Source: Centroscyllium fabricii (taxonomy: Eukaryota). From it: 64,000 nt of DNA. The translations under genes were made by a program, and so were the position numbers. This document shows, piece after piece, positions 3,173 through 64,000 of this stretch (positions are counted from its first letter, which is position 1; each line of letters opens with the position of its first letter). The notes beneath the pieces were generated by a model that saw only the letters and a program-made list of their open reading frames with translations, was not told the DNA's origin and searched no databases. The stretch is from positions 434,001 through 498,000 of the forward strand of contig JBNRSN020000184.1 in assembly GCA_051313645.2 (NCBI GenBank), given 5' to 3'.

Positions 3173-3705
3173 CAGAGCAAAGAAACTTCTGTACCTTACC
3201 CTGGTATAGTTAACCTCTCCGTGAAGGTATCAATCCCAGCTTGGTTTAAATTCTAATGTAATCAAAGATGAATAGGATGGCAATGTTGAAACGAGCATTT
3301 ACCAGTGGGAATTAGGGGCTGATTATATGTCTGGCTGCATTATAGTCACTAAATATCAAAGTAATTCATTACACGCAAAGTGCTTCGAGATATTTCAGAG
3401 ACACAAGAAGCTATATAAATACAAGCCTTGCTTTCAAACAAAGACTCAGGAAGACCAAACTCCCTAAACAATCTGCTTCATCTACAAACTTATTTCTACT
3501 TTGTTATTAAAACAGTCACACAAAAACCTTCCGTCCAGTTAACCAGTGTTATTTTCCAGTAACTTCTCAACTACATTAAGTTGATCTGACTTATGTCACC
3601 ATATATGGATACAATAGAATCTTCAGTACATCCATTCCAAGCCTCGCCTTCCACACATAACTAGCAAGGAACAGCTCAATTCAAAGCAAAAAGCAGGATT
3701 GCAGC

Positions 3706-6700: not shown

Positions 6701-7222
6701 GTGTAATATTCACCTGTCCCAGGAGTGCTCACGGTGTAATATTCACCTGTCCCGGGAGTGCTCACGGTGTAATATTCACCTGTCCCGGGGGTGCTCACGG
6801 TGTAATATTCCCCTTTCCCGGGAGTGCTCACGGTGTAATATTCACCTGTCCCAGGAGTGCTCACGGTGTAATATTCACCTGTCCCAGGAGTGCTCACGGT
6901 GTAATATTCACCTGTCCCAGGAGTGCTCACGGTGTAATATTCACCTGTCCCGGGAGTGCTCACGGTGTAATATTCACCTGTCCCGGGGGTGCTCACAGTG
7001 TAATATTCCCCTTTCCCGGGAGTGCTCACGGTGTAATATTCACCTGTCCCGGGAGTGCTCACGGTGTAATATTCACCTGTCCCAGGAGTGCTCACAGTGT
7101 AATATTCACCTGTCCCGAGAGTGCTCAGTGTAATATTCCCCTTTCCCGGGAGTGCTCACAGTGTAATATTCCCCTTTCCCGGGAGTGCTCACAGTGTAAT
7201 ATTCACCTGACCCAGGAGTACA
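3706..7222. repeat. 33-bp minisatellite, about 106 units
   Basis: Head-to-tail GTGTAATATTCACCTGTCCCRGGAGTGCTCACG with no spacers; occasional 31-bp units. Confidence 0.98.
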
Positions 7223-7391
7223 GTGGAGGGAGTGGACAGAGTGGATGTTTAGTGGTGTTTGTGCTCCCGATTGCTTTGTCTTCGATGGAGTCAGGTTACA
7301 TGTAATTCAAAAACATCTTAGCACCACTTAGTGGTCAATTTAAGGAACTGCAGTAAGTTTATTGTATTTTTCTATTCGTCAATTACTGTCA

Positions 7392-7818: not shown

Positions 7819-10238
7819 GTGCAGCGTAGTCTCGGATTGAGCTGGGACCTTCGGAAGGACGTGTTCACATTCCGCGTTGCCAACAGTGAGAAGCCATTCA
7901 CTCGCAGAGGCGTCCTTGCAACTGTAAACAGCTTGTTCAACCCCCTTGGTCTTGTTGCGCCCATCACCATCCAAGGGAAACTCTTACTAAGAGAGCTCAC
8001 CAGCAACACCATTGACTGGGATGCCCCCCTCCCAGCTGAAAAGGAGACAGAATGGATTTCTCGGAGAGACTCATTGTGAGATCTCGAAGAGTTTGAAACC
8101 CCTCGAGCCGACACTGCAACTTCCCTCTCCAACGCTCAGAGTACAGAGATCCACATCTTCTCAGATTCTTTCATAAAGGCCATTGCAGCAGTAGCATATC
8201 TCAAGCGGACAGGTCTTGATGGAACATACCACATCGGTTTCATCATGGGGAAAGCCAAGTTCGCCCCTATGTTGATCCACACTGTTCCCAGGCTTGAGTT
8301 ATGTGCTGCTGTCCTGGCAATAGAAGTTGCAGAGCTGGTTATGAGTGAGCTGGACATCAAACTAGACGCTTTGAAGATCTACACGGACAGCAAGGTGGTG
8401 TTGGGGTACATCTACAATGAAACCAGGAGGTTTTATGTATACGTCCGCAACAGGGTGCAACGGATCAGGAAATTATCTCGCCCTGAGCAGTGGCATTACG
8501 TCCCCACCAGCCAGAACCCTGCAGATGTTGCTACCAAATCAGTGCCGGCAGCACGCCTCTCAGACACCAATTGGCTTACCGGTCCCGATTTCCTGTCCCA
8601 TTCTGTGGAGACAGAGATTACTGAGGAAACACCTTACGATCTCATTGATTCTGAGTCGGATACAGAGGTACGATCTCACATCACTACGTGCACCGACTCA
8701 CACACCGGTCTTGGCTCTCAACACTTTGAACGGTTTTCAACATGGCAATCTCTCATCAGAGCTATAGCTTCTCTCATCCCCATTGCTCCGTCCTTCAAGT
8801 CTGAAACAAACAAGCAGAGAAAAGACTGCCGTGGTTGGCATCATTGCTCAAAGCCTCACTCAGCTGATGTCCTGCCACGAGCAAAGGCCATCATCATTGG
8901 ATGTGTGCAGAATGAAGCATACCAAGCTGAGTTAACTTGCTTGAACAAAGGAAAAGACAGTCCTAGAAACAGTCCACTGAGGAAGCTCAACCCTGACCTA
9001 GATGACAATGGCCTCCTCAGAATAGGTGGTCGGCTCCAACATGCTGCACTCGACACAGCAGAGAAACACCCTCACATCATACCTGGCCATAGCCATGTTT
9101 CTACTCTACTGACAAACCACTACCACGAGAGGGTTAAGCACCAGGGCCGTGTCTTCACTGAGGGAGCCATCCGTTCAGATGGCATCTGGATAGTTGGGGG
9201 CCAAGAAATGTATCACCAGCAATCTACGTAAGTGTGTTACATGCAACAAACTCCGTGGGAGGACAGCAGAGCAGAGGATGGCAAATCTTCCCTCTGATCG
9301 CCTCAGCACAGAGCCACTCTTTACGAACGTGGGTCTGGATGTGTTCGGCCCCTGGAACATATCTACTCGCCGTACCCGTGGAGGTGCAGCAAACAGTAAA
9401 AGGTGGGCAGTTCTTTTCACGTGCCTAAGTGTACGAGCCGTGCACATTGAGCTCAGAGTCAATGGACACTTCGAGCTTTGTCAATGCTCGATGGCGCTTC
9501 TTTGCTGTCCGTGGTCCTGTAAAGCTGATCCGCTCCGACTGTGGCACAAACTTCAAGGGAGCCTGCAAAGAACTGCGAATCCTTCTAGAAGACGCACATG
9601 AGCCCAGTGTGTCAAGATACATCAGTGAGGAAGGATGCACATGGATCTTTAACCCACCTCACTCGTCCCATATGGGTGGAGTGTGGGAAAGGATGATCAG
9701 GGAAGACGAATCTTAGACTCCATGCTTTCACAAGTTGGTCCTTCACGTCTCACCCACGAGGTGCTTTCAACCCTCATGGCAGAGGTAACGGCAATAATCA
9801 ACGCAAGACCTCTCACCCCCATCTCTACTGATGCTGACTCACCTTTCTTCCTGACTCCAGCGACAATCCTGACCCAAAGTCTGTACCCCTCTTCCTCCTC
9901 CAGGGTCCTTTGAGAATGCAGATCTGCACCATCAACAGTGGAAGAGGGTCCAGCATCTTGCCAACACCTTTTGGCAGAGGTGGAGACGAGAGTATCTCTC
10001 TACGCTCCAAAGCCCAAGCAAATGGCAGGATAGTCGGCCCAACGTCAAAGAAGGAGACTTAGTGCTGCTCAGAGATACTCAGGTGAAAAGGAACCTGTGG
10101 CCCATGGCTCTGGTCACTAAAGCCCACCCTGACCGTGATGGCAAGGTCAGAAAGCTCGAGCTTAAGGTCACCAAAGGTGGGACCGTAAAGACTTTCCTCA
10201 GGCCCATTACAGAAGTGGTGGTGCTTATGTCTCCCTAA
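7819..10238 (+). pseudogene. BEL/Pao pol remnant (RNase H, integrase) with stops and frameshifts
   Basis: ORF pieces 7819-8079, 8245-9231, 9194-9601, 9429-9716 and 9683-9913 carry successive Pao pol motifs. Confidence 0.88.
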
Positions 10239-10765: not shown

Positions 10766-10835
10766 GGGGTTTCACAGGAGGAACCAGTCAGTGTTCCAGA
10801 CTCCATGGTGAGCAGGTGTCCATGTAATCCAAGAG

Positions 10836-11908
10836 ATGGAGGATCCGGCAAGACGAGAATTACTACTAGCTGTCCTCCAACATCAACAAGCACTCTTCGA
10901 TTTTGCACTGTACCAGAGGCGTGCCAAAAGAGCCAAGAGAAGATTAGCTGAATGGAGGAGAAGGAACTGGGTGAGACCATGGATCGGGAGGCGACGGCAG
11001 TTTGGCATGTATGACCAGCTCATGGTGGAACTCCGTAACGAGGACCATGCATCCTTCACCAACTTCCTGCGTATGCCCCCAGCGATGTTCAACGAGCTGC
11101 TAGCCAGAGTGGGTCCAAGGATAACCAAGCAGTACACCTTCTACAGGGATCCGCTTGAGCCTGGCATGAAGCTGGCACTGACTTTGCGTCACCTTGCCTC
11201 TGGAAACAAGTATGCCTCGATGAAGTTCGCATGGAGGGTCCCTCACAACACCCAGTCCATAGTGGTCAGAGAAGTCTGTCAAGCCATTATTGACGAATAC
11301 GTGGATGAGGTGATGGTTTGCCCAACTACTCCTGATGGTTGGCGCGCCATAGCTGACAAGTTCTTCCAAAGATGGAACTTTCCCCATACATGTGGGGCAC
11401 TTGACGGGAAGCACGTGGCCTGCCGCTGTCCTCCAAAGACTGGGTCACAGTACTACAATTACAAAGGATTCTACTCCATTGTTCTGATGGCGCTTGTAGA
11501 TGCAGACTACAAATTTATTTGGGCAGATGTCGGCGGTACTGGATCTGCATCAGATGCGCAGATATACAATGGCTCTGAGCTAAAGGAATGCGCTGAAGAC
11601 GGTACCCTTGGTTTCACTGACCCTGAGCCTCTTCCCTACGACAACCAGGACGTGCCTTACTTCTTCATCGGTGACGATGCCTTCGCCTTACGACCAACCA
11701 TGATGAAGCCATTCAGCCTCCGTGGAATGACGAATGAAGAACGCATCTTCAACTACAGGCTTAGCCGAGCAAGAAGGGTAGTAGAAAATGCATTCGGCAT
11801 CCTGGCTAACAGATTCCAGGTTCTGCTAAGTACCATGCAGCATCACCCCTCCACTGTCAAGCTCATTGTCAAAGCATGCTTGATCCTGCACAACCTCATG
11901 AGGACCAG
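10836..11908 (+). CDS. Harbinger (HARBI1-like, DDE_Tnp_4) transposase, exon 1 of 2
   Basis: Motifs ALDGKH, YNYKGFYS, GDDAF and RRVVENAFG. Donor AG|GTAATT at 11909. Confidence 0.93.
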
Positions 11909-12105
11909 GTAATTAATGTTTACATAGCATATATTATACAGTATACAATGAAATTTAACTTTTAGCCTATGCTTATAAACATTATATGATTTACCTTAAA
12001 TTTTACATGTATCATTATATTACTTTTTAATGTACAGCGCATTAGAATATATGTTTTCATTATAGGTGCGCTTTATAAGTAAATAAAATCAAATTCAAAT
12101 TCCAG

Positions 12106-21990: not shown

Positions 21991-22283
21991 CTGTGTGGAG
22001 TTTGCACATTCTCCCCGTGTCTGCGTGGGTTTCCTCCGGGTGCTCCGGTTTCCTCCCACAGTCCAAAGATGTGCGGGTTAGGTTGATTGGCCAGGATAAA
22101 TTGACCCTTAGTGTTAGGGGGATTGAATATGTGGGGTTACGGGGATAGGGTGGGATATGTGTCGCTGCAGGCTCGAGAGGGATATGGGGAGAGGGCAGGG
22201 GCAGGGTACTGGGTTTGGATGATCAGCCATGATCTCATTGAATGGCAGAGCAGGCATGAAGGGCAGAATGGCCTACTCCTGCT
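21991..22283 (+). mobile_element. 5'-truncated V-SINE
   Basis: V-domain and CR1 tail; abuts an inverted tail fragment at 21953-21990. Confidence 0.85.
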
Positions 22284-22726
22284 CCTATCTTCTATGTTTC
22301 TATTCGGCCCCTCGAGTCTGCTCCGCCATTCAATGAGATCATGGCTGATCTTCCAAACCCAGTACCCCGTCCCTGCCTTCTCCCCATATCCCTTGATCAC
22401 TTTAGCCGTAAGAAATATATCTAACTCCTTCTTAAATATATTTAATGAATTGGCCTCTACTGTCTTCAGTGGTAGAGAATTCCACAGGTTCACCACTCTC
22501 TGGGTGTCCTAAATGGTTTACCCCTTATCCTTAGACGGTGACCCCTGGTTCTGGACTCCCCGACCATCGGGAACATCCTTCCTGCATCATACTGGAGTTT
22601 CTCAGTATCCTCCTCACCGCACACACGCCCACCCAGCTTTGTGTCGTCTGCAAACTTGGAGATATTACATCTAGTTCCCTCGTCTAGATCATTAATATAT
22701 AGTGTGAATAGCTGGTGTCCTAGCAC
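22283..22726 (-). mobile_element. Internally deleted CR1 fragment
   Basis: [10 protein letters not shown] is fused directly to DAGRMFPMVGESRTRGH. Confidence 0.8.
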
Positions 22727-34489: not shown

Positions 34490-34639
34490 CTGCAAGAAAT
34501 AAAGCAAAGCATCATTTTAAAACGTGACTGATTATAAATTCATTTGCGCTAATTCAACAAAGGCTCATTGTTCTGCAGGTGAAAATTTAAGCTCGTTTGG
34601 GAAAGTAATTGTTTCAATCCAGAGTAGCAAGATCTGTAA

Positions 34640-35944: not shown

Positions 35945-36034
35945 ATGATGTGGAGGTGCCGGTGTTGGACTGGGGTGGACAATTGTAAGAAGTCACACAA
36001 CACCACGTTATAGTCCAACAGTTTTATTTGAAAT

Positions 36035-36069
36035 CACAAGCTTTCGGAGCGTAGCTCCTTCATCAGGTG
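36035..36069 (-). ncRNA. Minimal type I hammerhead ribozyme motif
   Basis: CAC-CTGATGA-A-GGAGC TAC GCTCC-GAAAGCTT-GTG. Confidence 0.8.
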
Positions 36070-38089
36070 TGTAACAGAGATTCATTTAAACACAGCATAT
36101 ATACGAGGGAGAGCAGTGTAATCTTTCCAACATCACACCTCAGCAGAGAGACATACAAAGCAATCAAAGGTGTTTTAACATATTTTAACATATCAGTCAG
36201 GTACCAGCCTGAGATCAATGAGGTGCAGTCACAAAAGGTCAAATGTTGCAGTCTGGTGCCTGTGTGAAAACCCACAGAATGATTTTTTTTAATTGAGTGC
36301 GGAACTTGGCTATCAGCCTCTGCTCGACGATTTTGCGTTGTCGTGTGTCTCGAAGGCTGCCTTGGAGAATGCTTACCCGAGGATCGGAGGCTGAATGTCC
36401 TTGACTGCTGAAGTGTTCCCCGACTGGGAGGGAACACTCGTGCCTGGCGATTGTTGTGCGGTGTCCGTTCATCCGTTGTTGTAGTGTCTGCATGGTCTCG
36501 CCGATGTACCATGCTCCAGGACATCCTTTCCTGCAACGTATGAGGTAGACAACGTTGGTCGAGTCACATGAGTATGTACCATGTACCTGGTGGGTGGTGT
36601 CCTCACGCGTGATGATGGTATCTGTGCTGATGATTTGGCACGTCTTGCAGAGGTTGCCGTGGCAGGGTTGTGTGGTGTCGTGGTTGCTGTTCTCCTGAAA
36701 GCTGGGTAATTTGCTGCGAACGATGGTCTGTTTGAGGTTAGGCGGCTGTTTGAAGGCGAGTAGTGGAGGCGTAGGGATGGCCTTAGCGAGGTGTTTGTCG
36801 TCATCGATGACATGTTGAAGGCTGCGAAGAACATGGTGTAGTCTCTCCACTCCAGGGAGGTACTGGACGATAAAATGTACTCTGTTGGTTGTGTCCCGTG
36901 TTCGTCTTCTGAGGAGGTCTATGCGATTTTTCGCTGTGGCCCGTCGGAACTGTCAATCGATGAGTCGAGTGTCATATCCCGTTCTTACGAGGGCATCTTT
37001 CAGCGTCTGTAGGTGTCCATCGCGTTCCTCCTCGTCTGAGCAGATCCTGTGTATTCGCAGGGCTTGTCCATAGGGGATGGCTTCTTTAACGTGGTTAGGG
37101 TAGAAGCTGGAGTAGTGGAGCATCCTGAGGTTGTCCGTGGGTTTGCGGTAGAGGGAAGTGCTGAGGTGTCCGTCTTTGATGGAGATTCGTGTGTCCAAGA
37201 ATGAAACCGATTCTGAGGAGTAGTCCATGGTGAGTTTGATGGTGGGATGGAACTTGTTTATGTTATCGTGTAGGCTTTTCAGTGATTCTTTGCAGTGAGT
37301 CCACAGGTGGAAAATGTCGCCGATGTATCTGGTGTATAGCGTTGGTTGGAGGTACTGTGCAGCAAAGGAGACCAAATTCGCACCCCAATACGCCAACATC
37401 TTCATGCACAAGTTCGAGCAAGACTTCTTCGCTGCACAGTACCTCCAAATCATCAGCACAGATACCATCATCACACGTGAGGACACCACACACCAGGTAC
37501 ATGGTACATACTCATGTAACTCGACCAATATTGTCTACCTCATACGTTGCAGGAAAGGATGCCCCGGGGCATGGTACATCGGCGAGACCATGCAGACACT
37601 TCGACAACGGATGAACGGACACCGCACAACAATTGCCAGGCAGGAGTGTTCCCTCCCAGTCGGGGAACATTGCAGCAGTGAAGGACATTCAGCCTCCGAT
37701 CTTTGGGTAAACATTCTCCAAGGCGGCCTTCGAGACACACGACAATGCAAAATCGTCGAGCAGAGGCTGACAGCCAAATTCCGCACCCATGAGGACGGTC
37801 TCAACCGCGATATTGGCTTCATGTCACGCTACATGTGACCCTGCCTGACGTAGAGTCATCCAGACTAGAGACATCTTTGTCTTGTAAGGAAATTCCCTTT
37901 TTTTTTTTTTAAATCATTGTGTTTTGCAGCATTTGACCCCTTGTGACTGTGCCTCATTGATCTCAGACTGATGTGTTAAAATATGTTAATACGCCTTTGT
38001 GTGCTCTGTCTATCTCTGCTAAGGTGAGATGTGGGAGATCAGATTTCTCTCTTCCTCCCATATGTGCGTTCTTTAAGTCAGCTTCTCTT

Positions 38090-38127
38090 TCACCTGACGA
38101 AGGGGCAGAAGCTCCGAAAGCTTGTGA
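38090..38127 (+). ncRNA. Minimal type I hammerhead ribozyme motif
   Basis: TCAC-CTGACGA-A-GGGGC AGAA GCTCC-GAAAGCTT-GTGA. Confidence 0.8.
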
Positions 38128-38144
38128 TTTAAAATAAAACTGTT

Positions 38145-43434: not shown

Positions 43435-46400
43435 CTCCTCCCCTTTTAGTTTTTACAGCAATCTTTGTTAACTATAAACAATATAATCTTTGTTAACTAT
43501 AAACAATACACTACTTTTACAATTCCTGTCTTTATGGATAACATCCATTTGTAAAAGAAAGTAAACAATCGATGATAATTGCTTTGGTTGTCATTACAAG
43601 TTCAGCCTTTTTGGAGGCCTTCGAGCCCTCACTGGATATCGTCGTTCCCTTGTTTCCGGCTCTCTATGTGGGCTTGGCTCCCTATCATCTAAGGGATGAT
43701 TTGTATCGTCTAGCACCTCAATGAGGTCTTCAGTCTCGCTGCTGTATTCTTCCGTCTGAGCATACGCATGTGATCTGTTGTGCTCTTCAGTCTGAGTGTG
43801 AGACTGAGATCTGCTTAATAATTGGTCGGCGTGTCTGCGTACTGTGTTGTCTCCCACATTCACGGAATATGTGAGTGGCCCCTGACGTTCACTTATCGTT
43901 CCGGGTTGCCACTTTTCCATTGTCCGGTAGTCTCGGGCTAACACCAGCTGCCCTACCTGAAAATTTCTAGTGGGTTTCATGGGTTTCTCATATACCCTCT
44001 GGTACTGTTGGTCTTCTACCTCCCTTCTTATGTTTGGTTTCACCAGGTCCAATTTTGACCTTAACTGTCGGTTGAACATAAGTATCGAAGGTGGCTGCCC
44101 TGTGACAGAATGCGCCGTATTTCTGTACGCAAACAAGAAACAGTCAAGTTTATGTTGCAATTTCCTGTTGTCGTCACACATTGCCTTCATACCTTTCTTG
44201 AAGGTTTGGACAAAGCGTAAAGTGTTTGATTCCATTAACTTTCATGAAATTTTTGAATTCCTCCGCCACGAATTGAGGCCCATTATCTGAGCATATTTGC
44301 TCTGGCAATCCATTTCTGGCGAAGATTGTCCTCAAGACCGAAATGGTAATCTCTGTAGTGGTAGAGGACACCTTGATGACCTCCGGCCATTTCGAGTGGG
44401 CGTCGACAGCGATAAGGAACATTGAGTTCATGAATGGACCAGCAAAGTCTATGTGTACCCTCTGCCAAGGAGAGGAGGGCCACTCCCACAGATGTAGGGG
44501 CCCTGGCGGCGGCGCATTTTGGACCTTCTGGCATCCATTGCATCCTTTAGCCAGGTCCTCTATCTGGTTATCTATGCCTGGCCACTACACATATGCCCTG
44601 GTGAGGCTTTTCATCTTTACTCCCCCCAGATGTCCTTCATGGAGTTCTTTGAGAACCTTTTCTTGGAGTTTGGGAGGAATGATCACCCGTGTGCCACACA
44701 TCAGGGTTCCTCGGCACACCGACAGTTGTTCTCTTCTGGCAGAAAATGCTGGCAACAGTGGGTCGCCCTGTGCTGGCCATCCGGATAACGTTAGATCATA
44801 CACCCGCGACAGTGTCAAGTCCTTCCTAGTCTCGGTCTCTATTGTGGCATTGGTGACTGGTAGGGCATCAACAATAGTTGCATGGAAAATCTCTACTGGA
44901 TCTACTACTGGTGCTTCTTCGACTGCAGGCAGTGGTAGTCGTGAAAGGCCATCGGCATTTCCATGTTGCTTCGTGCCCTTGTATTCGATGTCATATTGAT
45001 GAGCCCCTAGGAAAAGTGCCCATCGTTGGAGTCTTTGTGCTGTCATTACAGGCACTCCTTTGGTCGGGTTGAAGATGGACACCAGGGCTGGTGATCCGTT
45101 AAGAGAGTAAATCTCTGTCCGTGCAAGTAATGGTTAAACTTCTTCACTCCCCACACTAGGCTGAGCGCTTCCCTATCGATCTGCGTGTAATTGCGCTCAG
45201 CCGTGGTTAATGACCTGGATGCGAAGGCTATTGGCCTTTCTGATCCGTCCAAGCATGTGTGAGATAACACTGCCCCAATTCCATGGGGTGATGCATCACA
45301 TGCCAACCTCAGTGGTAGGGTTGGGTTGAAGTGAGCCAGGACTTCTTTAGAAGTAATCAACCCTTTACATTTTTGGAATGCCTTTTTACACTCCTCACTC
45401 CATTTCCACTGCACTCCTGACTTAAGGAGGGTATTGAGTGGGTGTAAGATCGTTGATAAATTCGGCAGGAACTTGTGGTAGTTGACCAACCCGAGGAAAG
45501 ACCTCAACTGCGTTACATTTTCCGGAGCTGGCGCCTGCACTACCGCTTCAATTTTGGCCGGGGACTTGTGAAGTCCTTCTTCATCCATGATGTGTCCACA
45601 ATATGCGATTCGTTTGCTAAAGAATTCGCATTTTTCCCTATTTGCCCGGAGACCATATTCCTTTAGGCGAGTGAGTACCTGTTCCAAGTTCGCCAGGTGT
45701 TCTGTATCGATTTCTCCCATCACCAGGATGTCATCCAGGTAGCATTGGGTACCCGGGATCCCTTGTAATACTTGGTCCATCGTTCTTTGCCAATGACTGG
45801 GGCCGATGCCACCCCAAAGACAAGCCTATTGTATCTATATAGTCCCTTGTGTGTGTTTATCGTGAGGTACTCTTTGGATTTATCTTCAACCTCCATTTGT
45901 AGGTATGCCTGGGCCAGGTCGATTTTGGTGAATCGTCTACCACCCGCCAATGAGGCAAATATGTCCTCGATTCTGGGTAGGGGGTACTGTATGCAGTACT
46001 GGGTTAACGGTGACTTTGAAGTCCCCACATATTCGAACTTTGTGGTTCCCCAGGTGTATCCCTTAAGGGTTTCTTCATAACCGGTACAATTGGCGTGGCC
46101 CATTCGCTATACTCGACTTTAGAAAGCCCCCCTGCCCGCTCGAGGCTCTCTAATTCCGCCTCCACGGCCGGGCAAATGGCATAAGGCACAGGTTTTGCCT
46201 TAAAGAATTTCGGGGTGGCATTTCTTTCGATCTTGATGGTGGCGGTCATACCTCTAAGGGTTCCTAGTCCTTCCTGGAATACCTCTTTCGTTCTGTCCAG
46301 TATCTCCGCCAGTCTAGCTGGATTGTCGCTAGCATCCTTGTTGGCCTCCATGGTCAGTGCCTGGATGGAGCGCCAGTCAAGTTGGATTTTCCTGATCCAC

Positions 46401-46888
46401 TCAGTGGTGGCGGACCTCCATTCTGTAAGACGTAGATGTACATGTTAGGTATGTTTCTACCGCGGTAACGTACGGTTACTTTAAATTTCCCTTTGGGGCA
46501 TACTTTCTGTCCCGTGTACGTCTTCAAGGTTATCTCCGTCTGTTTCAGTGGAATATGTGAAAAGAGCCACTCATAGTCTCTCTTATTTATAATAGTGAGG
46601 GCTGACCCAGTGTCCAGTTCCATGTCGAGTTGGACCTTTTCAATGTTAAGTTTGACCCAGATGGCCTCACGATCGTCATTTTCGCTGACCTTGTTCAGTT
46701 TAAGAGAGCCCAGGTCTGTGCTGGAGTTGTCGGTTTTACCCTTTTTGTCCTCCGAGTCTGAACTACCCTCGGTTACTCTGTGGACCTTGGTGTTTGTCCA
46801 TTTTGGGGATATTTTACTTTCTTTACTCAGTTTATTCCCCGCTCTACAGACCCTGGCAATGTGGCCAATTTTGCCGCATTGTCTACAC

Positions 46889-47323
46889 CAGTGGTCCCCA
46901 ACCTTTTTGCGTTCGCGGCCCGTTTTGGGGTTGTCAATTTCTTCGCGGGCCGGTGTGGGGGTTCTGATCGGAGATTTTTAGCCTCAGCGGGGGGGGGGGG
47001 GGGGGGGGGGGGGGTGATGGAGCTTTTTAGCCTCAGCGGGGGATTTTCTAGGCTGGCGGGGTAAAAAGACTGACCCTGGCGCTGCAATTCCTTCAGTTGC
47101 CAGCGGGCAGCGGCTGGGTCTCTGAGGCGGCGCATGCGTAGATTCACAGACCCTGCCGCTGCAATTCCTTCAGTTGCCAGCGGCTGGGTCTGTGAGGCGG
47201 CGCATGCGCCGATCATTAGCCGACGGTCCGCGGCAAGGTCGTTGATTCGGCGCATGCGCGGATTCTCAGAACCGTCCGCGGACCGGTAAAACTGTCCCGC
47301 GGACCGGCGGTTGGAGACCGCTG
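46889..47323. mobile_element. hAT (Charlie-like) MITE
   Basis: TIR CAG(T/C)GGTC(C/T)CCAACC and 8-bp TSD GTCTACAC; inserted in the second gag knuckle. Confidence 0.9.
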
Positions 47324-48220
47324 GTCTACACTGTTTGTCTTTAAACCAGCAGCTTTTCTGGTCGTGGGTTGTTCTGCCACATCGGTAGCATCTATCAAAT
47401 CTCGGAGACATCTTGTTAGCCTCATACTCCCGCTCCCGTGGTTGGTGTTGAATTTCCACGGCACTTTTATCTGCCGATTCGTGGAACAAGGCTATATTAA
47501 AAGCCGTTTCCAAAGTTAAGTCTTTCTTTGTTAAGAGCAGTTTTTGCGTGCTCTCGCTGACTAATCCACATACAAATCTATCTCTTAGCAGTTCTGTACG
47601 CATGTCTCCATATTGACAATGGTCTGCTAGTTTCCTTAATTCAGAGAGGTATTCCGCATTTGACTCCCCTCTACGTTCAGCGATTATCAACGGTGCAGGG
47701 CTTAAATGTTCCTTAATGCCCTAGTTTCACTGGAGGCTACGAATTGCCGAATCGTGCCGATTGTGAAATTTGGCCGATTCGTGGGTAATTCTTGCAATTC
47801 GTGGTGGATTCGTAGTGGATTCGTAGCGGTTTCGTAGCGGTTTCGTAGCGGTTTCTTAGAGTTCGTGGAAGGTCGCGGGAATTCTTTGAGTTTTCAAGAA
47901 AGTTTTTGTTTGTCAAAAAATTTCGTGGGAGGGTTCACGAATGTCCAATTCGTGATAGATTCCTAAACAATTCGTGACCCTTTCTTACCGTTCGTGACCC
48001 TTTCTTACCGTTCGTAACTGATTCGTAGTGGATTCGTGGTGCATTCTTGCCTATTCTTGGGCATTCTTGATTTTTTCAAAATCAGGAATGCACCACGAAT
48101 GTCCACGAATGTACTACGAATGCACTGCGAATGCACTACGAATCGTCACTTATCAGAGATTTAGCGCGAAACTGACCAGGTCAGAGTTCACTGACTGCTA
48201 CCGATCTCCATTTTAAAAGC

Positions 48221-48626: not shown

Positions 48627-49679
48627 GTGGCCGTCTTTCTCGAAGGTAATGATTTTATTTTTAACAAGCGGCGGTTCGACCACTGCTTCGCTGACAGAAA
48701 ACACAGGGCGTGGGAGGAAGAGGCCAGGAACATGGGCAAGCAGGTGAAGGACCTGACAACCTTTTTTGATAGCATAAGGACACAGATGGGGAAGATGAGG
48801 AGAAAAACGAGTGGCCAGGGAACATTGGAGCTGACAGAGAGGCAGCAGTGGATCTGGACCCGCTTCCAGTTCCTCGTACCGCACATCGGCCATGTCACGA
48901 GGCGGACCGTGCAGAGCCTCAAGCCTGCTACCACACAGCCTGCTACTGCAGATCCTGAGGACAGGGATCCTGACGTGGAAATGGTGGATGAAAGTGTGCC
49001 CACGCCACCGCAGGAAAGCACCCCAAACTCCAGCATCACAACCGCCAGCAGCTGCAGAGGTGGCAGTCGAAAGAGGAGAGGGACAGCCATGGAGGAAGAT
49101 GAGGACATTGCAGGGGAGAGGGCCAGCTCAAGGGCGAGGCAGATGGAGCTGCTGGAGATCATCAGATCGAACGCTGATAATGCTGTTCCCTTTCCGGCCC
49201 GCCTCAAGTACGGTGAATTTTTGGGCCATTCTTTTCAGCAGCTGCCCCATTTTATGTACATTGAGCTCCGTGAGAAAATGTCGGCGCTCCTAACAGAGGC
49301 TGAGAAGAAGTTTGCTCTAATGGAGCAGTCCCGCCAGGGAGCATCGCCAGCACCACCTCCACCAGAACCAGCAGCCTCTCTACTTACAACACGCCCCTCA
49401 TCAACCTCATCCACCCTGCCCATGCAACCTCCTCGTCAGTGGCACCCACCCTACCAGCAGCAAGGCCAGTGGCACGGACATCAGTCGCAGTGGCACTCCA
49501 ACACTGTGATTACTCATCCTTGCCATCCCGCTGAAAGTTCCTGGATTGATCAGCAGCCAGGAACATCAATGCAAAGTGATCCCCACACTTTCACGATCCC
49601 TCCAACTGCAGACAGCCAACAGCCTGACATGAGTGCACCACCTGATGACTGTTATGTCCACGTCTCAGCAGGACACTAG
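48627..49679 (+). CDS. Harbinger accessory protein exon 2: MADF (Myb/SANT-like) domain plus BESS-like motif, 456 aa spliced
   Basis: Acceptor TTATTCTAG|. Sequence ..KHRAWEEEA..FDSIRTQMGK..SGQG..WIWTRFQFLVPH; later YGEFLGHSFQQLPHFMYIELREKMSALL. Confidence 0.8.
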   Translation: MAVFLEGNDFIFNKRRFDHCFADRKHRAWEEEARNMGKQVKDLTTFFDSIRTQMGKMRRKTSGQGTLELTERQQWIWTRFQFLVPHIGHVTRRTVQSLKPATTQPATADPEDRDPDVEMVDESVPTPPQESTPNSSITTASSCRGGSRKRRGTAMEEDEDIAGERASSRARQMELLEIIRSNADNAVPFPARLKYGEFLGHSFQQLPHFMYIELREKMSALLTEAEKKFALMEQSRQGASPAPPPPEPAASLLTTRPSSTSSTLPMQPPRQWHPPYQQQGQWHGHQSQWHSNTVITHPCHPAESSWIDQQPGTSMQSDPHTFTIPPTADSQQPDMSAPPDDCYVHVSAGH

Positions 49680-50271: not shown

Positions 50272-51549
50272 TCACACACGCTTGCTCAGTCCTGCCATTC
50301 TGTCCTGCCACGGAACAGATCCAGCAGCACTGTTGAAGTATGCTGTGAGGTAGTCCCTCTGGATCTTGCCCATCTGGTGGTCTATGTTACGTGCAGAGGG
50401 GTGTGTAACCGCGTGCATCTGCATGCCGTCCCTCCAGGCTCCAGGGATGATGCTGTGGTTGTCATCCTTGTGGTCCACCTCTGTGTTTCCAATTGCGGGG
50501 AACCTGATCCTCATGAGGTTGTGAAGCAGGACAGCTGTTTCCACCATGGTGCACACCATTTCTGGATGTTGTTCCAGGGTTCCAAGGAAGCATCTCCATC
50601 TGTTGGCCATTATTCCAAAGGCATTCTCCACCACGCGTCTGCCCCTTGAGATTCGGTAGTTGGCCACCATCATCTCATCACTGAGACCCCTCCTGGAGTA
50701 GGGTTTGATGAGGAAAGTTCTGAGGCCAAAAGCTTCGTCTCCCAGGATAAAGTAGGGCATGTCTCTGTCATCATTAGGCAAAGGGTCAGCGTCAGGGAAG
50801 TGGATGGTTTGGTCTTCTATGCATTCCCTCAGTTGTGAGGCCCCAAATATCTGTCCATCAGATTGATGACCTTGTCCACCAGTGTCAATCCAGATAAACT
50901 TATAATCTGCATCCACCAAGGCCAACAGAACCACGGAGAAGAAGCCCTTGTAATTGTAGTACACACTGCCAGACTTGGGTGGTTTCTTGAGGGCTATGTG
51001 TTTGCCATCCAAGGCCCCCAGGGCATGAGGAACATTCCACCGGTATTGGAACTGGTGGGCAATGGCTTTCCAGTCCTCCTGGGTCTGGGGCAGTGGCATG
51101 ACCTCGTCCTTTAGTGCTTGAATGATGGCATTGCATACCTCCTTGATGATCACTCCCACGGTGCTCCTGCCACATCTGAAGTTGAAGTGGAGGGTCGGGT
51201 ACCCGTCTCCTGTAGCCAGGTGTCTGAGGGTGAGGGCCAGCTTCAGTCCAGCATTTAGGGGTGGTCTCAGCCGGGTGTGCTGCCTCTGGATGAAAGGGGT
51301 GATCCTTTGGAGGAGCTCATCGAACATCTGCTGTGGCATTCTCACATAGTTGACGAAGGAGTTCTGATCTTCCAGCCTCAGTTCCTGCAGCAGTCTGTGG
51401 TAGTGCCCAAACTCTAGCCTTCTAGCCGGTGTCATCCATGGTCGAACCCACCAGCGCTTGCGTCTTCTTGGGGGTTCCAAGAACAGCAGGTCGTGATAGT
51501 GCTCCAACTCCGCAGCCAGAGCCACACATGCTTTCCATCGAACACCCAT
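50272..51549 (-). CDS. Harbinger (HARBI1-like) transposase, 425 aa, intronless
   Basis: Uninterrupted ORF with ALDGKH, YNYKGFFS, GDEAF and RRVVENAFG. Confidence 0.95.
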   Translation of the reverse strand: MGVRWKACVALAAELEHYHDLLFLEPPRRRKRWWVRPWMTPARRLEFGHYHRLLQELRLEDQNSFVNYVRMPQQMFDELLQRITPFIQRQHTRLRPPLNAGLKLALTLRHLATGDGYPTLHFNFRCGRSTVGVIIKEVCNAIIQALKDEVMPLPQTQEDWKAIAHQFQYRWNVPHALGALDGKHIALKKPPKSGSVYYNYKGFFSVVLLALVDADYKFIWIDTGGQGHQSDGQIFGASQLRECIEDQTIHFPDADPLPNDDRDMPYFILGDEAFGLRTFLIKPYSRRGLSDEMMVANYRISRGRRVVENAFGIMANRWRCFLGTLEQHPEMVCTMVETAVLLHNLMRIRFPAIGNTEVDHKDDNHSIIPGAWRDGMQMHAVTHPSARNIDHQMGKIQRDYLTAYFNSAAGSVPWQDRMAGLSKRV

Positions 51550-52878
51550 TGTACAAATGACAGGTTCAGCAGGGGTTCAGGGTTTTTTTATATGCTGGAA
51601 TATGCCGGAATATCAACAGCAATGCCAACTATCAAAATCAATTCTTAGATGATTCTTAGAATTCGTAACTAATTCGTGGAGTTCGTAGTGGATTCTTAAT
51701 TAATTCTTGCAATTTGTGGTGGATTCGTGAGTGATTCGTACCTCATTCCTACAATAATTCGTGATAGATTCGTAACCTTGTCCAGAATCGCCAAGAATTC
51801 ACCAAGAATCGCCAAGAATCAACCAAGAATTTTCGCATTTTTTGCAGAATCGCCAAGAATTTCGATTCTTGACGATTCTTGGGATTCTTGGCATTCTTAG
51901 CCTCCAGTGAAACTAGGGCATTAGCAATGTGACAATCTGTGTAAAAGTCTTGTCAATCGGTTTCGTCGGCAGCGCTAAACTTTTTAAAAGCCCGAAAGTT
52001 TTCGCACCCATCGCATTTAAAAGGGTTATAGCCTTTTTATCGTCATCAATTTCATTAGCTTGGCAATATATCTCGACTGTGTCGATATATGTGTCCCAAT
52101 TCTCCATCTCGCTGTCAAAAGCTGCCAAGCTATTATTTCTGGCCATTTTCTTAACCCTTTTATCTTTTCCAAAATGGCAATTTTTCCCGCCCTTGTCCTT
52201 CTTCACCGGGGTTTCCCGCTCTTTCTGAGTAAAGATGGCATTTTTCCCCGCCCTTGTCCTTCTTCCCCGGGGTTTACGCGCCTTTATTTATTTCTTTGGT
52301 TTGCCCAAGTGTGGCTCTGCAGTGTCCTGTCTGCAGAATTGCCTCTGCTGCACCAAAGCTTTTGCACGGCGTCTTGCAACCCTTTGCTCTGGGTTCGTGG
52401 CTTTCTGGTCGGTGCCGATTGTGCCCCGCTGCCAAAACCCTTCTATGTTTTCCCTGGCTCAGAAATCAGTGCTGAGCGCTTTGCCGCCAGCAATGGCTTC
52501 TCGACTTCCATCCTATTTATTTTCCGTTTTTCCCCGCTCCGTGACTCAGGCAGGCTGTCTTGGTCGTGCCGCCGGTCGGGAGAGTTTTTGAGAAAAGTAA
52601 ACAGTTGTACCTGCAGCCAGTCCGTGTGCTGGCTTCACCTCTGTGTCCATGTCTGTCCGCTAAAACCGGAGAACCAAGCCTGGTCCTCGACGGTTGGTTG
52701 GAGATTCAGCAGTCTTTCTTTCTGCTGGGCCTAGCTCAGTGCAGATTTTGCAGCCTGTCTGTACAGCAGGTGGAGTGCTGTACTCGATGCCCACTGCTGG
52801 AAGGTTCTGGAATGCTTCTGCTTTCGTTTTTTTTTAAACAGAAATCCACAAAGTGTGAGGCTGGGTTAGTTCCGCTAT

Positions 52879-59511: not shown

Positions 59512-60087
59512 ATGAAATACTCTACACTTGCCTGGATGAGTGCAGCTCCAACATTCAAGAAGCTCGACACCATCCAAGACAAAGCAAGCTCGCTTGATTG
59601 CCACCCCATCCACCACCTTAAACATTCACTCCCTCCACCATCAGCGCACCACGGACCATCTACAAGACGCACTGCAGCAACTCGCCAAAGGCTTCTTCAG
59701 CAGCACCTCCCAAACCCGCGACCTCTTCCACCTAGAAGGACAAGGGCAGCAGGCGCATGGGAACACCATCACCTCCAAGTTCCCCTCCAAGTCACACACC
59801 ATCCTGAGTTGGAAGCATATCGCTGATCCTTCATCATCGCTGGGTCAAAATCCTGGAACTCCCTTCCTAACAGCACTGTGGGAGCACCTTCACCACACGG
59901 ACTGCAGCAGTTCGAGAAGGCAGCTCACCACCACCTTCTCGAGGGCAATTAGGGATGGGCAATAAATGCTGGCCTTGCCAGTGATGCCCACATCCCATCA
60001 ACGAATATAAAAAAACTCAAATCCTCTTGTAATAAATGTAAGAAGTCACACAACACCAGGTTATAGTCCAACAGTTTTATTTGAAAC

Positions 60088-60122
60088 CACAAGCTTTCGG
60101 AGCGTTGCTCCTTCATCAGGTG
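60088..60122 (-). ncRNA. Minimal type I hammerhead ribozyme motif
   Basis: CAC-CTGATGA-A-GGAGC AAC GCTCC-GAAAGCTT-GTG. Confidence 0.8.
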
Positions 60123-60177
60123 TAGTAGAGATGCATAAAGACACAGCATATATAGTCGGAGAACAATGTAATCTTTC

Positions 60178-60599
60178 TGTGGTGTATGGACAACATACAC
60201 CTATGTACTGATGATGCTAGACTCTACCTCGGCATCACCCCTCTATATCACCCCGGTGCTGTACGATGGACTGTTGCCTTTAAGGATGGGGCTGGGCACT
60301 GTATCATGTGATATTACCAGGCTGCAGTACCCTTACCAGCCACTGTCGTGTGTATATAAGCTCGCATGTGTAGTTCCTGGCAGTCTTCCATTAGTCCTCA
60401 GACCTCGAGGAGTTAGCTATTAGTACTCTAGTAGACTAAGCTGTAAGCTAATGTAAATTTGTTTGGCGCGAGAAGCGCAACGGGTTAAGTTGTGATTTTA
60501 CCATGTACAGTAAATATCACCCAGTTAGAACTTAACCTGAGTCTGTCGTCATTTGTCCTCCTTCTAACATAAAACGTAACAATGGCGATAGATTTAACA
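60178..60599 (+). mobile_element. Solo LTR (422 bp)
   Basis: TGTGG...TAACA with TSD CTTTC; shares blocks with the solo LTR at 25729-25952. Confidence 0.83.
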
Positions 60600-60658
60600 C
60601 TTTCCAACTGCCCTTCCTCACACCTCGGCAGAGAGACATTCATAGCAATCAAAGCACC

Positions 60659-61154
60659 GTACTACAGGAGAGATGTGGAGGCGCTGGAGAGGGTGCAGAG
60701 GAGATTCACCAGGATGCTGCCGGGAATGGGAGGAAAGTCATACGAGGAGAGGTTGAGGGAGCTGGGACTCTTCTCCCTGGAACGGAGAAGGAAGAGGGGG
60801 GACTTGATAGAGATGTTTAAAATGATGAAGGGGATCGATAGAGTAAACGTGCAAAGACTGTTTCCCCGGGCGGGAAGAACGTCAACAAGAGGACACGAGC
60901 ACAAGATTCAAGGAGGAAGATTCAGAAGGGATGGCAGGGGCAGGTTCTTTACACAGAGAGTGGTCGGGGAATGGAATAGGCTACCATCTGAAATAGTGGA
61001 TGCGGACAGTCTGGGTGCTTTTAAAAGGATGATAGACAGGTACATGGAGGGGAAGGAACAGTAGGGGGGACAGGAAAAATCAGAGATGGACTAAGGGCGG
61101 CACTACATTGAGGGCCCAAGAGCCTGTACAGTGCTGTATGTTCTATGTTCTATG
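60659..61154 (+). mobile_element. CR1 3' end, divergent subfamily
   Basis: LERVQRRFTRMLPG and FFTQRVVGEWNRLP motifs; (TTCTATG)n tail. Confidence 0.88.
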
Positions 61155-61516
61155 TAAAGGTGTGAATGGTGTTTAAACAGGTCAGTCAGGAAGGCACCAC
61201 CCGAAGAACAATGAGGCGGAGTCACAAAGAGTCAAATGTTGCACAGTCTGGGGTCTGTGTGAGAACCAACAGAACAATTTTTAAAATAAAGCTTTTTCTT
61301 GCTGGAAATCGCAGCCGCGTCTGCGTAGTGAGGACAAGCCAAAGACGACTCGAGTCTGGATGACTCTACGTCAGGTGGGGTCACATGTAGCGCGACATGA
61401 AGCCAATATCATGGTTGAGGCTATGAATGTCTCTCTGCCGAGGTGTGATGAAGGGCAGTTGGAAAGATTACATTGTTCTCCGACTATATATGCTGTGTCT
61501 TTATGCATCTCTAGTA

Positions 61517-61551
61517 CACCTGATGAAGGAGCAGCGCTCCGAAAGCTTGTG
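61517..61551 (+). ncRNA. Minimal type I hammerhead ribozyme motif
   Basis: CAC-CTGATGA-A-GGAGC AGC GCTCC-GAAAGCTT-GTG. Confidence 0.8.
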
Positions 61552-62594
61552 GTTTCAAATAAAACTGTTGGACTATAACCTGGTGTTGTGTGACTCCTTA
61601 CAATTGTCCACCCCAGTCCAACACCGGCACCTCCACATCATGTAATAAAGGCCAACATACCATTGGTTTCCCTAATTGCTTGCTATACCTGCATGTTAAC
61701 TTTCAGTGATTCGTGTACAGGGACACCTGGCTCCCTCTGAACACCATTTCCCAATCTCTCACCATTTAAAAAATATTCTGTTTTTCCATTTTTCCTACCA
61801 AAGTGGATAACTTCACATTTCTCCACATTATATTCCAAAAAGGAGATAGAGAGAAACGGTTCCCATTGGCAGAAGGGTCAAGATCCCGAGGACACAGATT
61901 GAAGGTGATTGGCCGAAGATCTAGAGGCGGGAGGAGGGGAAACGTTTTTACTCAACGAGTGGTTCTGATCTGGAATTCACTGCCTGAGGGGGTGGTGGGA
62001 GCAGACTCAATCACGGCTTTCAAAAGGGAATTGGATAAATATCTGAAGTTAAAAGAATTGCAGGGCTCCGGGGAAAGGGCAGGGGAGCGGGGCCAGGTGG
62101 AGTGCTCTTGCAGAGAGCCGGCACGGGCTCAACGGGCAGAATGGCCTTTTCTATGCTTTAAACATTCTATGATACTCATTTCGTACCTCAGCTATGCCCT
62201 CTGCCTCCACAAGCACATCTCCTTTTTGGTCCGCAATTGGCAGCTTTTGACCACCACTTTACATGTTTATAAAAGACTTTAGTGTTCCCCATTTTATGTT
62301 ACTTGCTAATGTTTTCTCATACAATCTCTTTGTCCTTCATTTTCTTTTTCAGTTCTCCTCTGTACTTGCTGTATTCTGCACCGTATTCGCTACTGAGTTC
62401 TGAATCAGACATGGATCAGAAGCCTCCCTTTCTGTTCTATTTTAATCTCTATATCTCTCGCCATCCAGGGAGCTCTAGTTTTGGAAGCTCTTCCTTTCCC
62501 CCTCATAATGTGGAGGTGCCGGTGTTGGACTGGGGTGGACAAATGCAAGAAGTCACACAACACCAGATTATAGTCCAACGGTTTTATTTTAAAT

Positions 62595-62630
62595 CACAAG
62601 CTTTCGGAGCGTCTGCCCCTTCGTCAGGTG
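62595..62630 (-). ncRNA. Minimal type I hammerhead ribozyme motif
   Basis: Reverse complement of 62652-62687. Confidence 0.8.
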
Positions 62631-62651
62631 GACAGAGAGTCTCTCTCTGTC

Positions 62652-62687
62652 CACCTGACGAAGGGGCAGACGCTCCGAAAGCTTGTG
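62652..62687 (+). ncRNA. Minimal type I hammerhead ribozyme motif
   Basis: CAC-CTGACGA-A-GGGGC AGAC GCTCC-GAAAGCTT-GTG. Confidence 0.8.
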
Positions 62688-62908
62688 ATTTAAAATAAAA
62701 CCGTTGGACTATAATCTGGTGTTGTGTGACTTCTTGCATTTTCCCCCTCATGTTATTGTGTCCAGTCTTTCTTTTTTTTGTCATTTTACATAACTAGTTT
62801 AAAATATGATCACTGTTTCCCTAATCACCCCCCCCCCCCCACACTGAAACACACCCCACCTGCCCTATTTCATGCCCCAGAACTCCATCCAACACGGCTT
62901 CCTTTCTT

Positions 62909-63105
62909 ACGATAGCAAAATCCTGCGGATGCTGGAAATCCGAAATAACAGAAAACGCTGGAGAAACTCAGCAGGCCCGGCAGCATCGGTGGAGAGAGAA
63001 ACAGAGTTAACGTTTCAGGCCGACCTGAAACATCGACTCGATTTCTCTCCCCACGGAGGTTGCCTGGCCTGCTGAGTTTCTCCAGCATTTTCTGTTGTTA
63101 TTTCT
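62909..63105. mobile_element. Older fold-back element (family 2) with a collapsed centre
   Basis: Imperfect inverted arms around GTTTCAGG-CCGA-CCTGAAAC, a one-sided ~30-nt tail, and 12-bp TSD GCTTCCTTTCTT. Confidence 0.75.
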
Positions 63106-63526
63106 GCTTCCTTTCTTGTTCCGCTGATGCCGCCCCACCCCCTGATCCTCCCACTTCTCCCCCACACGTCCAATTACCGGCAGCGGGCAATGGAGTGTGT
63201 CCAGGAGCCTCGGGTAATTACCCCTTCCGAACCCCGATTCCTGATATCTGTCCCGCTCCCACCATCAGGACAGATCTGCCCTCCCTGTGCTACCCCAGAA
63301 CAGAAGAGGGAAGCTGGGCCCACTTGGCCTTCGCAGCCGCTCCTGGTTACAGCTGTCCGGGAGCAGCCTGCTTACATTTGATTTGCAGCAATCGATCTAT
63401 TACATTCATGTCATTTATAGCTGCAGCTGGGAGCCAAATGATCATTTGTTTGGCTGCTGTTTGCTGCAAAGAGTGCGTGATGTTATTTTCATGTTGCGAA
63501 TGTGCAAGTCCGCTGTGTGCAGTGGT

Positions 63527-63921
63527 CATAGAAACATAGAAACTAGGAGCAGGAGTCGGCCCTTCGAGCCCGCTCCGCCATTCAATGAGATCATGGCTGA
63601 TCATCCAAACCCAGTACCCTGTCCCTGCCTTGTCCCCATATCCCTCGATCGCTATCGAGCCTGCACCGACACATATCCCACCCTATCCCTGTAACCCCAC
63701 ATATTCAATCCCCCTAACACGAAGGGTCAATTTATCATGGCCAATCAACCTAACCCGCACATCTTTGGACTGTGGGAGGAAACCGGAGCACCCAGAGGAA
63801 ACCCACGCAGACACGGGGAGAATGTGCAAACTCCACACAGATAGTACCTGAGGCTGGATTTGAACCCGGGTCTCCAGTGCTGTGAGACAACAGTGCTAAC
63901 CACTATGCCACCGTGCCGCCC
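63527..63921 (-). mobile_element. V-SINE, full length
   Basis: Same structure as 7392-7795. Confidence 0.9.
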
Positions 63922-64000
63922 TGGTCCACATCATTCCCTTAATAAGCTTTCTAAAGATACATGACATCTTGCTTCTCAGACATTTGGCGAAGTCTAGTCT

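Follow-up and report, generated by a model that had tools for sequence, protein, structure and literature searches.

The perfect palindrome described here lies within a 64-kb stretch of Centroscyllium fabricii DNA (the window) and is very probably one insertion of an abundant Penelope-like retrotransposon (PLE) with an endonuclease (EN+), 5'-truncated to an extreme degree and accompanied by an inverted copy of the same end. The supports for this reading are directly observed, namely the identity of the family, a tail on one side only, a flanking duplication, and the repetition of the layout in neighboring insertions. All five features by which EN+ PLE insertions are recognized were found: an end linked to reverse transcriptase (RT) and endonuclease (EN) coding sequence, an inverted pseudo-LTR (pLTR), a tail at one end, a duplication, and tandems. 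The focal unit is thus a new instance of an already described insertion structure; for sharks, we found no description of such stumps in the openly accessible literature, Repbase aside.

Anatomy of the focal unit

As the preliminary description stated, the arm at 62541-62639 is the exact reverse complement of that at 62643-62741 (99/99 positions), with a TCT loop between them, and among the exact inverted pairs of the window whose loop is shorter than 40 nt, this one alone surpasses 15 bp (Table 1). The RNA fold of the focal transcript has a predicted energy of -209.8 kcal/mol (z -29), equaled by none of 200 shuffles. No second copy of the focal center was found in the 64-kb window. A direct repeat, TTTCCCCCTCAT, flanks the unit at 62495-62506 and 62740-62751, and random position pairs put through the same search procedure yielded a repeat of at least 12 bp in 9 of 3000 cases. 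This repeat had been reported as a 12-bp target-site duplication. Its flanking position holds, but it shares two nucleotides with the element at each end (AT at the tail and TT at the short arm), and therefore the real target-site duplication is 8-12 bp.

The unit had also been taken for a symmetric element, which it is not. A 34-36-nt extension of the family end (62505/62507-62540) is present on the left side only; this tail went unseen in the preliminary description and, save one base, is the same as the ends at 61606-61642 and 35945-35980. MITEs are short, noncoding elements with terminal inverted repeats at both ends, lying directly against the duplication. The focal unit is likewise short and noncoding, with inverted repeats and a duplication, but its unpaired tail lies between the duplication and the left arm, and its ends are asymmetric and derive from the 3' end of a retroelement. 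A MITE is therefore ruled out. The family end also holds AATAAA at 62583-62588 on the minus strand, a polyadenylation-like signal within the hairpin on the STIMATE-sense strand.

Table 1. Positions in the window of the focal unit and related features, with the loci of an unrelated metagenomic family
Feature	Position or loci	Strand	Basis
Target-site duplication, left copy; last 2 nt common with tail end	62495..62506	+	Repeat search
PLE tail, 34-36 nt, one-sided; 3' end of element	62505..62540	-	Match to tails 61606-61642 and 35945-35980
Long arm: 3' part of pLTR, sense on minus strand	62541..62639	-	Inverted-repeat and family comparison
Inversion junction: 3-nt loop 62640-62642 between 2-nt AG/CT overlap	62638..62644	.	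Family consensus behind 62630
Short arm: inverted tail-less copy of same pLTR end; ends at tail boundary	62643..62741	+	Same stop as 60034
Target-site duplication, right copy; first 2 nt common with short arm	62740..62751	+	Repeat search
Minimal hammerhead motif, STIMATE-sense copy	62595..62630	-	Mirror of 62652-62687
Minimal hammerhead motif	62652..62687	+	56/56 cells paired across 7 window copies; features as in accessible text of PMC4209133
Same-family copy with 9-bp duplication; inverted arm (no tail) from 60034, arm with tail to 61642	60028..61649	+	Arms 140/144 identical
Other-family near-symmetric palindrome; 33-nt one-sided tail, 12-bp duplication	62897..63117	-	Arms 84%
Copy in which two inverted family ends enclose coding remnants (broken frames, RT-like and GIY-YIG-like)	35945..38144	.	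Sequence comparison
Loci of unrelated metagenomic family	L001-L003, L006, L009, L011, L012, L014, L016, L021, L023, L025, L029, L030, L032, L033, L040, L041, L053, L059, L062		Animal-like DNA

The parental family in the window and in public runs

Five other copies of the focal end are present in the 64-kb window. The focal arms are identical to each other, whereas they match four other copies at 87/97 to 89/97 positions. We examined four inverted insertions in the window, three of which have a one-sided tail and a duplication (12, 9, and 12 bp), and the junction differs among all four. Two of them lie within 2.5 kb of the focal unit and share its layout, each with its own duplication (9 and 12 bp), another junction, and a tail of 37 nt (60034-61642) or 33 nt (62909-63105). 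The tail-less arm of 60034-61642 and the focal short arm share their stop nucleotide, although the 60034-61642 copy is not palindromic. Its short arm is broken at 60178-60599 by a solo-LTR-like insert of 422 bp that has TG...CA termini along with a 5-bp duplication, and the copy also holds a LINE fragment at approximately 60670-61150. In the other neighbor (62897-63117) the center falls within the hammerhead helix II region, so that neither arm contains a whole core.

A further copy (35945-38144) connects the family to coding sequence. Its end at 38084-38144 is identical to the focal arm at 58 of 61 positions, and its core follows the stop of a GIY-YIG-like frame (37299-37838) at a distance of 256 nt. 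An inverted twin of this frame (36242-36952; 93% over 345 nt) scores 0.97 in the Atlas to GIY-YIG-bearing clusters, and the RT-like frame scores 0.95; the broken RT-like and GIY-YIG-like frames together occupy 36239-37838. In the clusters behind these matches (0.95-0.97), GIY-YIG is annotated on 13-27% of members and RVT_1 on 11-27%. Pfam returned no family for the three PLE frames, and therefore the PLE identification relies on Atlas features and on motifs read by eye; a PDB sequence search gave just two chance matches (E 0.56 and 0.85). A target duplication was looked for at 35945-38144 and none was found. The two ends of this copy represent different subfamilies, being 75% alike in the end region and 93% in the endonuclease region, and it possibly arose from two templates in one insertion or from nested copies. 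On sequence comparison, the focal end belongs to an element that codes for RT followed by a GIY-YIG endonuclease, that is, an EN+ PLE. The frames at 36239-36952 include a Cys-rich linker with C-x4-C-x2-C, and a zinc finger-like linker between RT and EN is a criterion for the Neptune clade in the accessible text of PMC8557442; the linker of the shark family suggests possible membership of that clade.

The layout is familiar from published elements. The accessible parts of Arkhipova et al. 2013 (PMC3846280) describe inverted 5'-truncated pLTRs with an optional 31-bp tail and 8-10-bp duplications, and palindromes that are abundant at head-to-head junctions and were read as self-priming; in those of Craig et al. 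2021 (PMC8557442) and PMC8969392 the same layout is typical of PLE insertions. Like the focal unit, EN+ PLE insertions described in these texts have a head-to-head inverted truncated end, a 30-40-nt tail at one end, a short duplication, and a junction palindrome. Unlike them, the focal unit consists of two ends only (∼235 bp) and is palindromic throughout, with perfect 99-bp arms compared to the 18- and 38-bp palindromes quoted there for rotifer elements.

Public sequencing runs X1, X3, X5, and X8 were examined for 62160-62665, a segment that takes in the left flank and the long arm, continues through the loop, and ends 23 nt into the short arm. Runs X1-X4, all from one study, contain 0.68-0.70 of the sampled words, and no RNA run was among those listed as containing them. 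X1 and X3 (two of the four runs examined, from two samples of one study) each gave one contig extending from the flank to 62530 with no differences, at depths of 4.84 and 3.06, respectively; these contigs reach 24 letters into the element, against a bridging rule of 31 letters. X5 gave an exact 164-nt flank contig with no junction, and X8 gave neither among the pieces listed. No contig over the exact focal center was found among the 32 pieces listed. However, X1 holds a 69-nt contig over the center (62588-62655) with three other letters and one gap, at a depth of 50.5 compared to 4.84 for its flank contig, and related hairpins with a similar center may therefore exist in several copies.

The family itself is very abundant in X1, X3, X5, and X8, with varied flanks at the tail end. 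Contigs of other copies with loose ends at 62508 number 175 in X1 and 156 in X3, and three X5 contigs have loose ends at 62541, the tail boundary. Direct-tandem (go-back) joints occur in the family contigs, for example from 62538 back to 62508 and from 62595 back to 62504 among the 12 of 48 rows listed, and 15 "skip" joints, each a single contig with 20-23 letters on its short side, were left out of the interpretation. An unbroken contig through the insertion point fits the absence of an empty allele, at a low depth and with contigs that cannot by themselves show absence; no empty site was seen. Judged by eye, the sequence that follows a match to 62465-62501 in one X1 and one X3 contig bears a loose likeness to the right flank, a hint that the insertion went into a repeat in which the duplicated 12-mer was present once.

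These data also bear on whether the palindrome could be an assembly or library artefact, produced by a fold-back read or by polishing that equalized two similar arms. The center is absent from the contig pieces listed and X1-X4 hold just part of the sampled words, as such an artefact would have it. Nevertheless, the duplication stands on both sides of the unit, the short arm stops where the biology of the element sets a boundary, contigs of two samples reproduce the left flank and junction without differences, older imperfect examples adjoin the unit, and polishing could erase a few arm differences at most. We find an artefact hardly credible.

Hammerhead motif and proposed formation of the palindrome

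A CTGA-N-GA...GAAA core is present on each strand (62655-62680 on the plus strand and 62602-62627 on the minus strand), so that the hammerhead reported for both strands is borne out as a hammerhead-like core, by motif and family comparison and not by Rfam. The motif at 62652-62687 comprises a 3-bp helix I, the core CUGACGA, an extra A, a 5-bp helix II opening with G-C, and GAAA, and a palindromic AGCU stands where helix III would be. All eight pairs are kept in each of the seven copies in the window; among these copies there is no two-sided change, and 500 of 500 shuffles score equally for covariation. A search of 60000-64000 against Rfam matched no hammerhead family, and therefore the label rests on the motif and the family comparison. 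The same search returned eight microRNA-precursor models, every one under its gathering score; these reflect the hairpin only, and by this measure the unit does not qualify as a microRNA precursor.

The motif resembles the minimal, dimer-type hammerhead defined in PMC4209133, whose accessible text reports no cleavage for single motifs. Shared features are a short helix I, the extra base between positions 9 and 10.1, the G10.1-C11.1 pair, a palindromic helix III region, and dual motifs on opposite strands that derive from truncated copies. The same text already mentions pairs on opposite strands at distances of 100-700 bp, compared to 27 nt between the focal cores; the focal helix II is 5 bp, and sharks are not named in the accessible text. 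Forcing the hammerhead helices against the hairpin costs 75.6 kcal/mol in a read-through transcript of either strand. Five isolated 61-nt copies, when folded freely, did no better than their shuffled versions (z 0.06 to -0.77), a test that is uninformative for a dimer-type motif. Given that the motif is of the minimal type that requires a dimer, is predicted to be buried in the hairpin, and has its partner on the other strand, self-cleavage is unlikely. Retrozymes carry hammerheads as direct repeats on the same strand, which gives unit-length RNA. The focal unit is similarly a hammerhead-bearing noncoding retroelement, but it has one motif per strand, on opposite strands, with no same-strand tandem, and a retrozyme is ruled out.

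How the two halves came together can be proposed from the end points. The GIY-YIG endonuclease of the element would nick the two strands of the target at points separated by 8-12 nt. Reverse transcription would be primed from one of these nicks at an outer start site, the tail end, and from the other at an inner start site 34-36 nt further in. Synthesis of the inner cDNA would stop ∼17 nt upstream of the hammerhead core, and a head-to-head joint through the 2-nt AG/CT overlap would connect the halves. The loop letters appear to resemble what precedes the short arm in the family. In the run consensus and the window copies, the stretch upstream of the core suggests that the loop and two further bases belong to the short arm, in which case the halves would end 3-5 nt apart, a tentative figure. 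In vitro work on the Anolis element Poseidon (Frangieh et al. 2024, PMC11167929), as far as its accessible text goes, shows that both strands are cut and extended, that two RT start sites bound the tail, and that the hammerhead is dispensable for insertion and inactive without protein. The two start sites match both end points of the focal unit; however, Poseidon belongs to another clade, the system is in vitro, and head-to-head junctions are not explained in that text.

For the junction itself, we give a slightly better than even chance to a route in which the inner cDNA snaps back on itself and then anneals to the strand primed at the tail. This route is favored because it would account for both the perfect identity and the symmetry. 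Snap-back cannot supply the tail, and therefore the tail must derive from the strand primed at the outer site. The alternative, in which two molecules of the same RNA each templated a cDNA and the two cDNAs stopped 3-5 nt from one another, is less probable, and a plausible route all the same. Either way, the focal copy is to be regarded as dead, with no coding capacity and, according to the predicted fold, a ribozyme locked in the hairpin.

The preliminary description had offered two alternatives, a fold-back integration product or a self-propagating ribozyme element that mimics a MITE. The first is supported and is a described feature of PLEs. The second is not supported, in view of the asymmetric ends, a short arm that stops at the tail boundary as in the non-palindromic neighbor, the sequestered ribozyme, and the need for a same-strand partner. 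In its general form, self-propagation would have the PLE enzyme re-insert the complete transcript of a master hairpin as a non-autonomous palindromic element. This would suit the depth-50 X1 contig with its four differences over the center, and two of the three inverted insertions at 60-63 kb are nearly symmetric. A search of metagenome contigs for the head-to-head core pattern adds to this side. It returned 63 loci, none of the shark family (0/63), and one unrelated, hammerhead-bearing family accounts for 21 of them, or 17 sites after merging (L001 and L062 are probably one site). Loci L006, L009, and L041 have ∼97-nt arms, a one-sided ∼31-nt tail, and 13-26-bp duplications, and on their sequences the anatomy of a tailed head-to-head palindrome is general beyond the shark family. 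The spacer is 15 nt in 8 of the 17 sites, which share a recurring 7-bp-arm center, and 5-29 nt in the rest, within a search pattern of at most 30 nt. Because a center recurs in this family, self-propagation keeps some probability, and a shared center alone would not prove it. In all five testable sites of the 17, the distance between arms within a site was not below that to the nearest other site (mean 0.102 within and 0.131 between), so that this comparison does not show arms made anew at each site. Four hammerhead-like head-to-head loci outside this family (L054, L061, L027, and L057) were also seen, and the arms of L054 extend 56 nt further.

End sequences alone suffice for mobilization in trans, according to the accessible text of PMC3846280, which again would permit self-propagation. 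Against it, the focal short arm reaches precisely to the tail boundary and carries over no flank, like that of the non-palindromic neighbor, the focal center lacks a second copy in 64 kb, the centers of the unrelated family vary (5-29-nt spacers, with a search pattern of up to 30 nt that favors short ones), and the predicted folding leaves the ribozyme unable to form. A perfect 99-bp hairpin is, moreover, a poor RT template. A fixed snap-back point in the template would give the same result, so that a shared center with different target-site duplications is not decisive. On balance we consider self-propagation unlikely. Extended to a class, fixed-center head-to-head hammerhead palindromes would be non-autonomous hairpin retroelements copied whole by Penelope-like enzymes in sharks and at least one unrelated animal lineage (that of L006, L009, and L041), a proposal that we regard as improbable; if it were true, intronic copies would feed dsRNA against their own family.

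Host gene, age, and significance

Homologue matching places STIMATE exons 2-4 on the minus strand at 34496, 21699, and 14053, the best exon match being a sawshark protein (98%), and exon 1 gave no match in the window among the matches listed for the nine homologues used. With exons 2-4 on the minus strand and exon 1 apparently outside the window, the focal site is probably in STIMATE intron 1, no less than 28 kb away from exon 2, which makes the location given earlier plausible, and a hairpin would be expected in STIMATE pre-mRNA. Long frames at 10812-11912 (plus) and 50272-51576 (minus), which we take to be Harbinger/PIF transposase-like, and what is presumably a possible partner gene at 48627-49679, lie in STIMATE introns as well. 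Sequences at 43594-47720 (minus) and 8080-10238 (plus) are presumably broken coding remnants of Gypsy-like and BEL/Pao-like LTR retrotransposons. Further features of the window are an 80% inverted pair of head-to-head LINE/SINE-like tails (22178-22393) and a long tandem array of a ∼27-bp unit with open frames on both strands (∼3600-7300).

The perfect arms had been read as a sign of very recent origin or ongoing conversion, which does not follow. At a shark mutation rate of 7x10^-10 per generation (accessible text of PMC10587355), two 99-bp arms without a single difference are compatible with an age of up to 2.2x10^7 generations, or 1.1x10^7 at the upper rate, and the four CpGs per arm would tighten this bound somewhat. 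The focal insertion is younger than its neighbors, not necessarily recent. The same estimate bears on the proposal that a longer inverted insertion later lost its middle or had its arms homogenized by hairpin-templated repair. The neighbor at 60034-61642 shows the longer form, the focal center has a 2-nt overlap, and microhomology-mediated deletions are reported for Penelope copies in the accessible text of PMC3846280. However, perfect identity requires no conversion at 7x10^-10 per generation. Furthermore, a deletion between inverted repeats as a rule abolishes or disrupts their symmetry and does not make it perfect, and we judge this origin very unlikely.

The focal locus alone is of little importance. 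As intronic perfect hairpins, such units are possible sources of dsRNA or substrates for editing. As a class, these stumps of a PLE are clean records of integration, holding both RT start sites, the nick stagger, and the head-to-head joint within 260 bp, and their centers and arm identity, taken genome-wide, would bear on the choice between self-priming and two-template priming, a step that the accessible PLE literature leaves unresolved.
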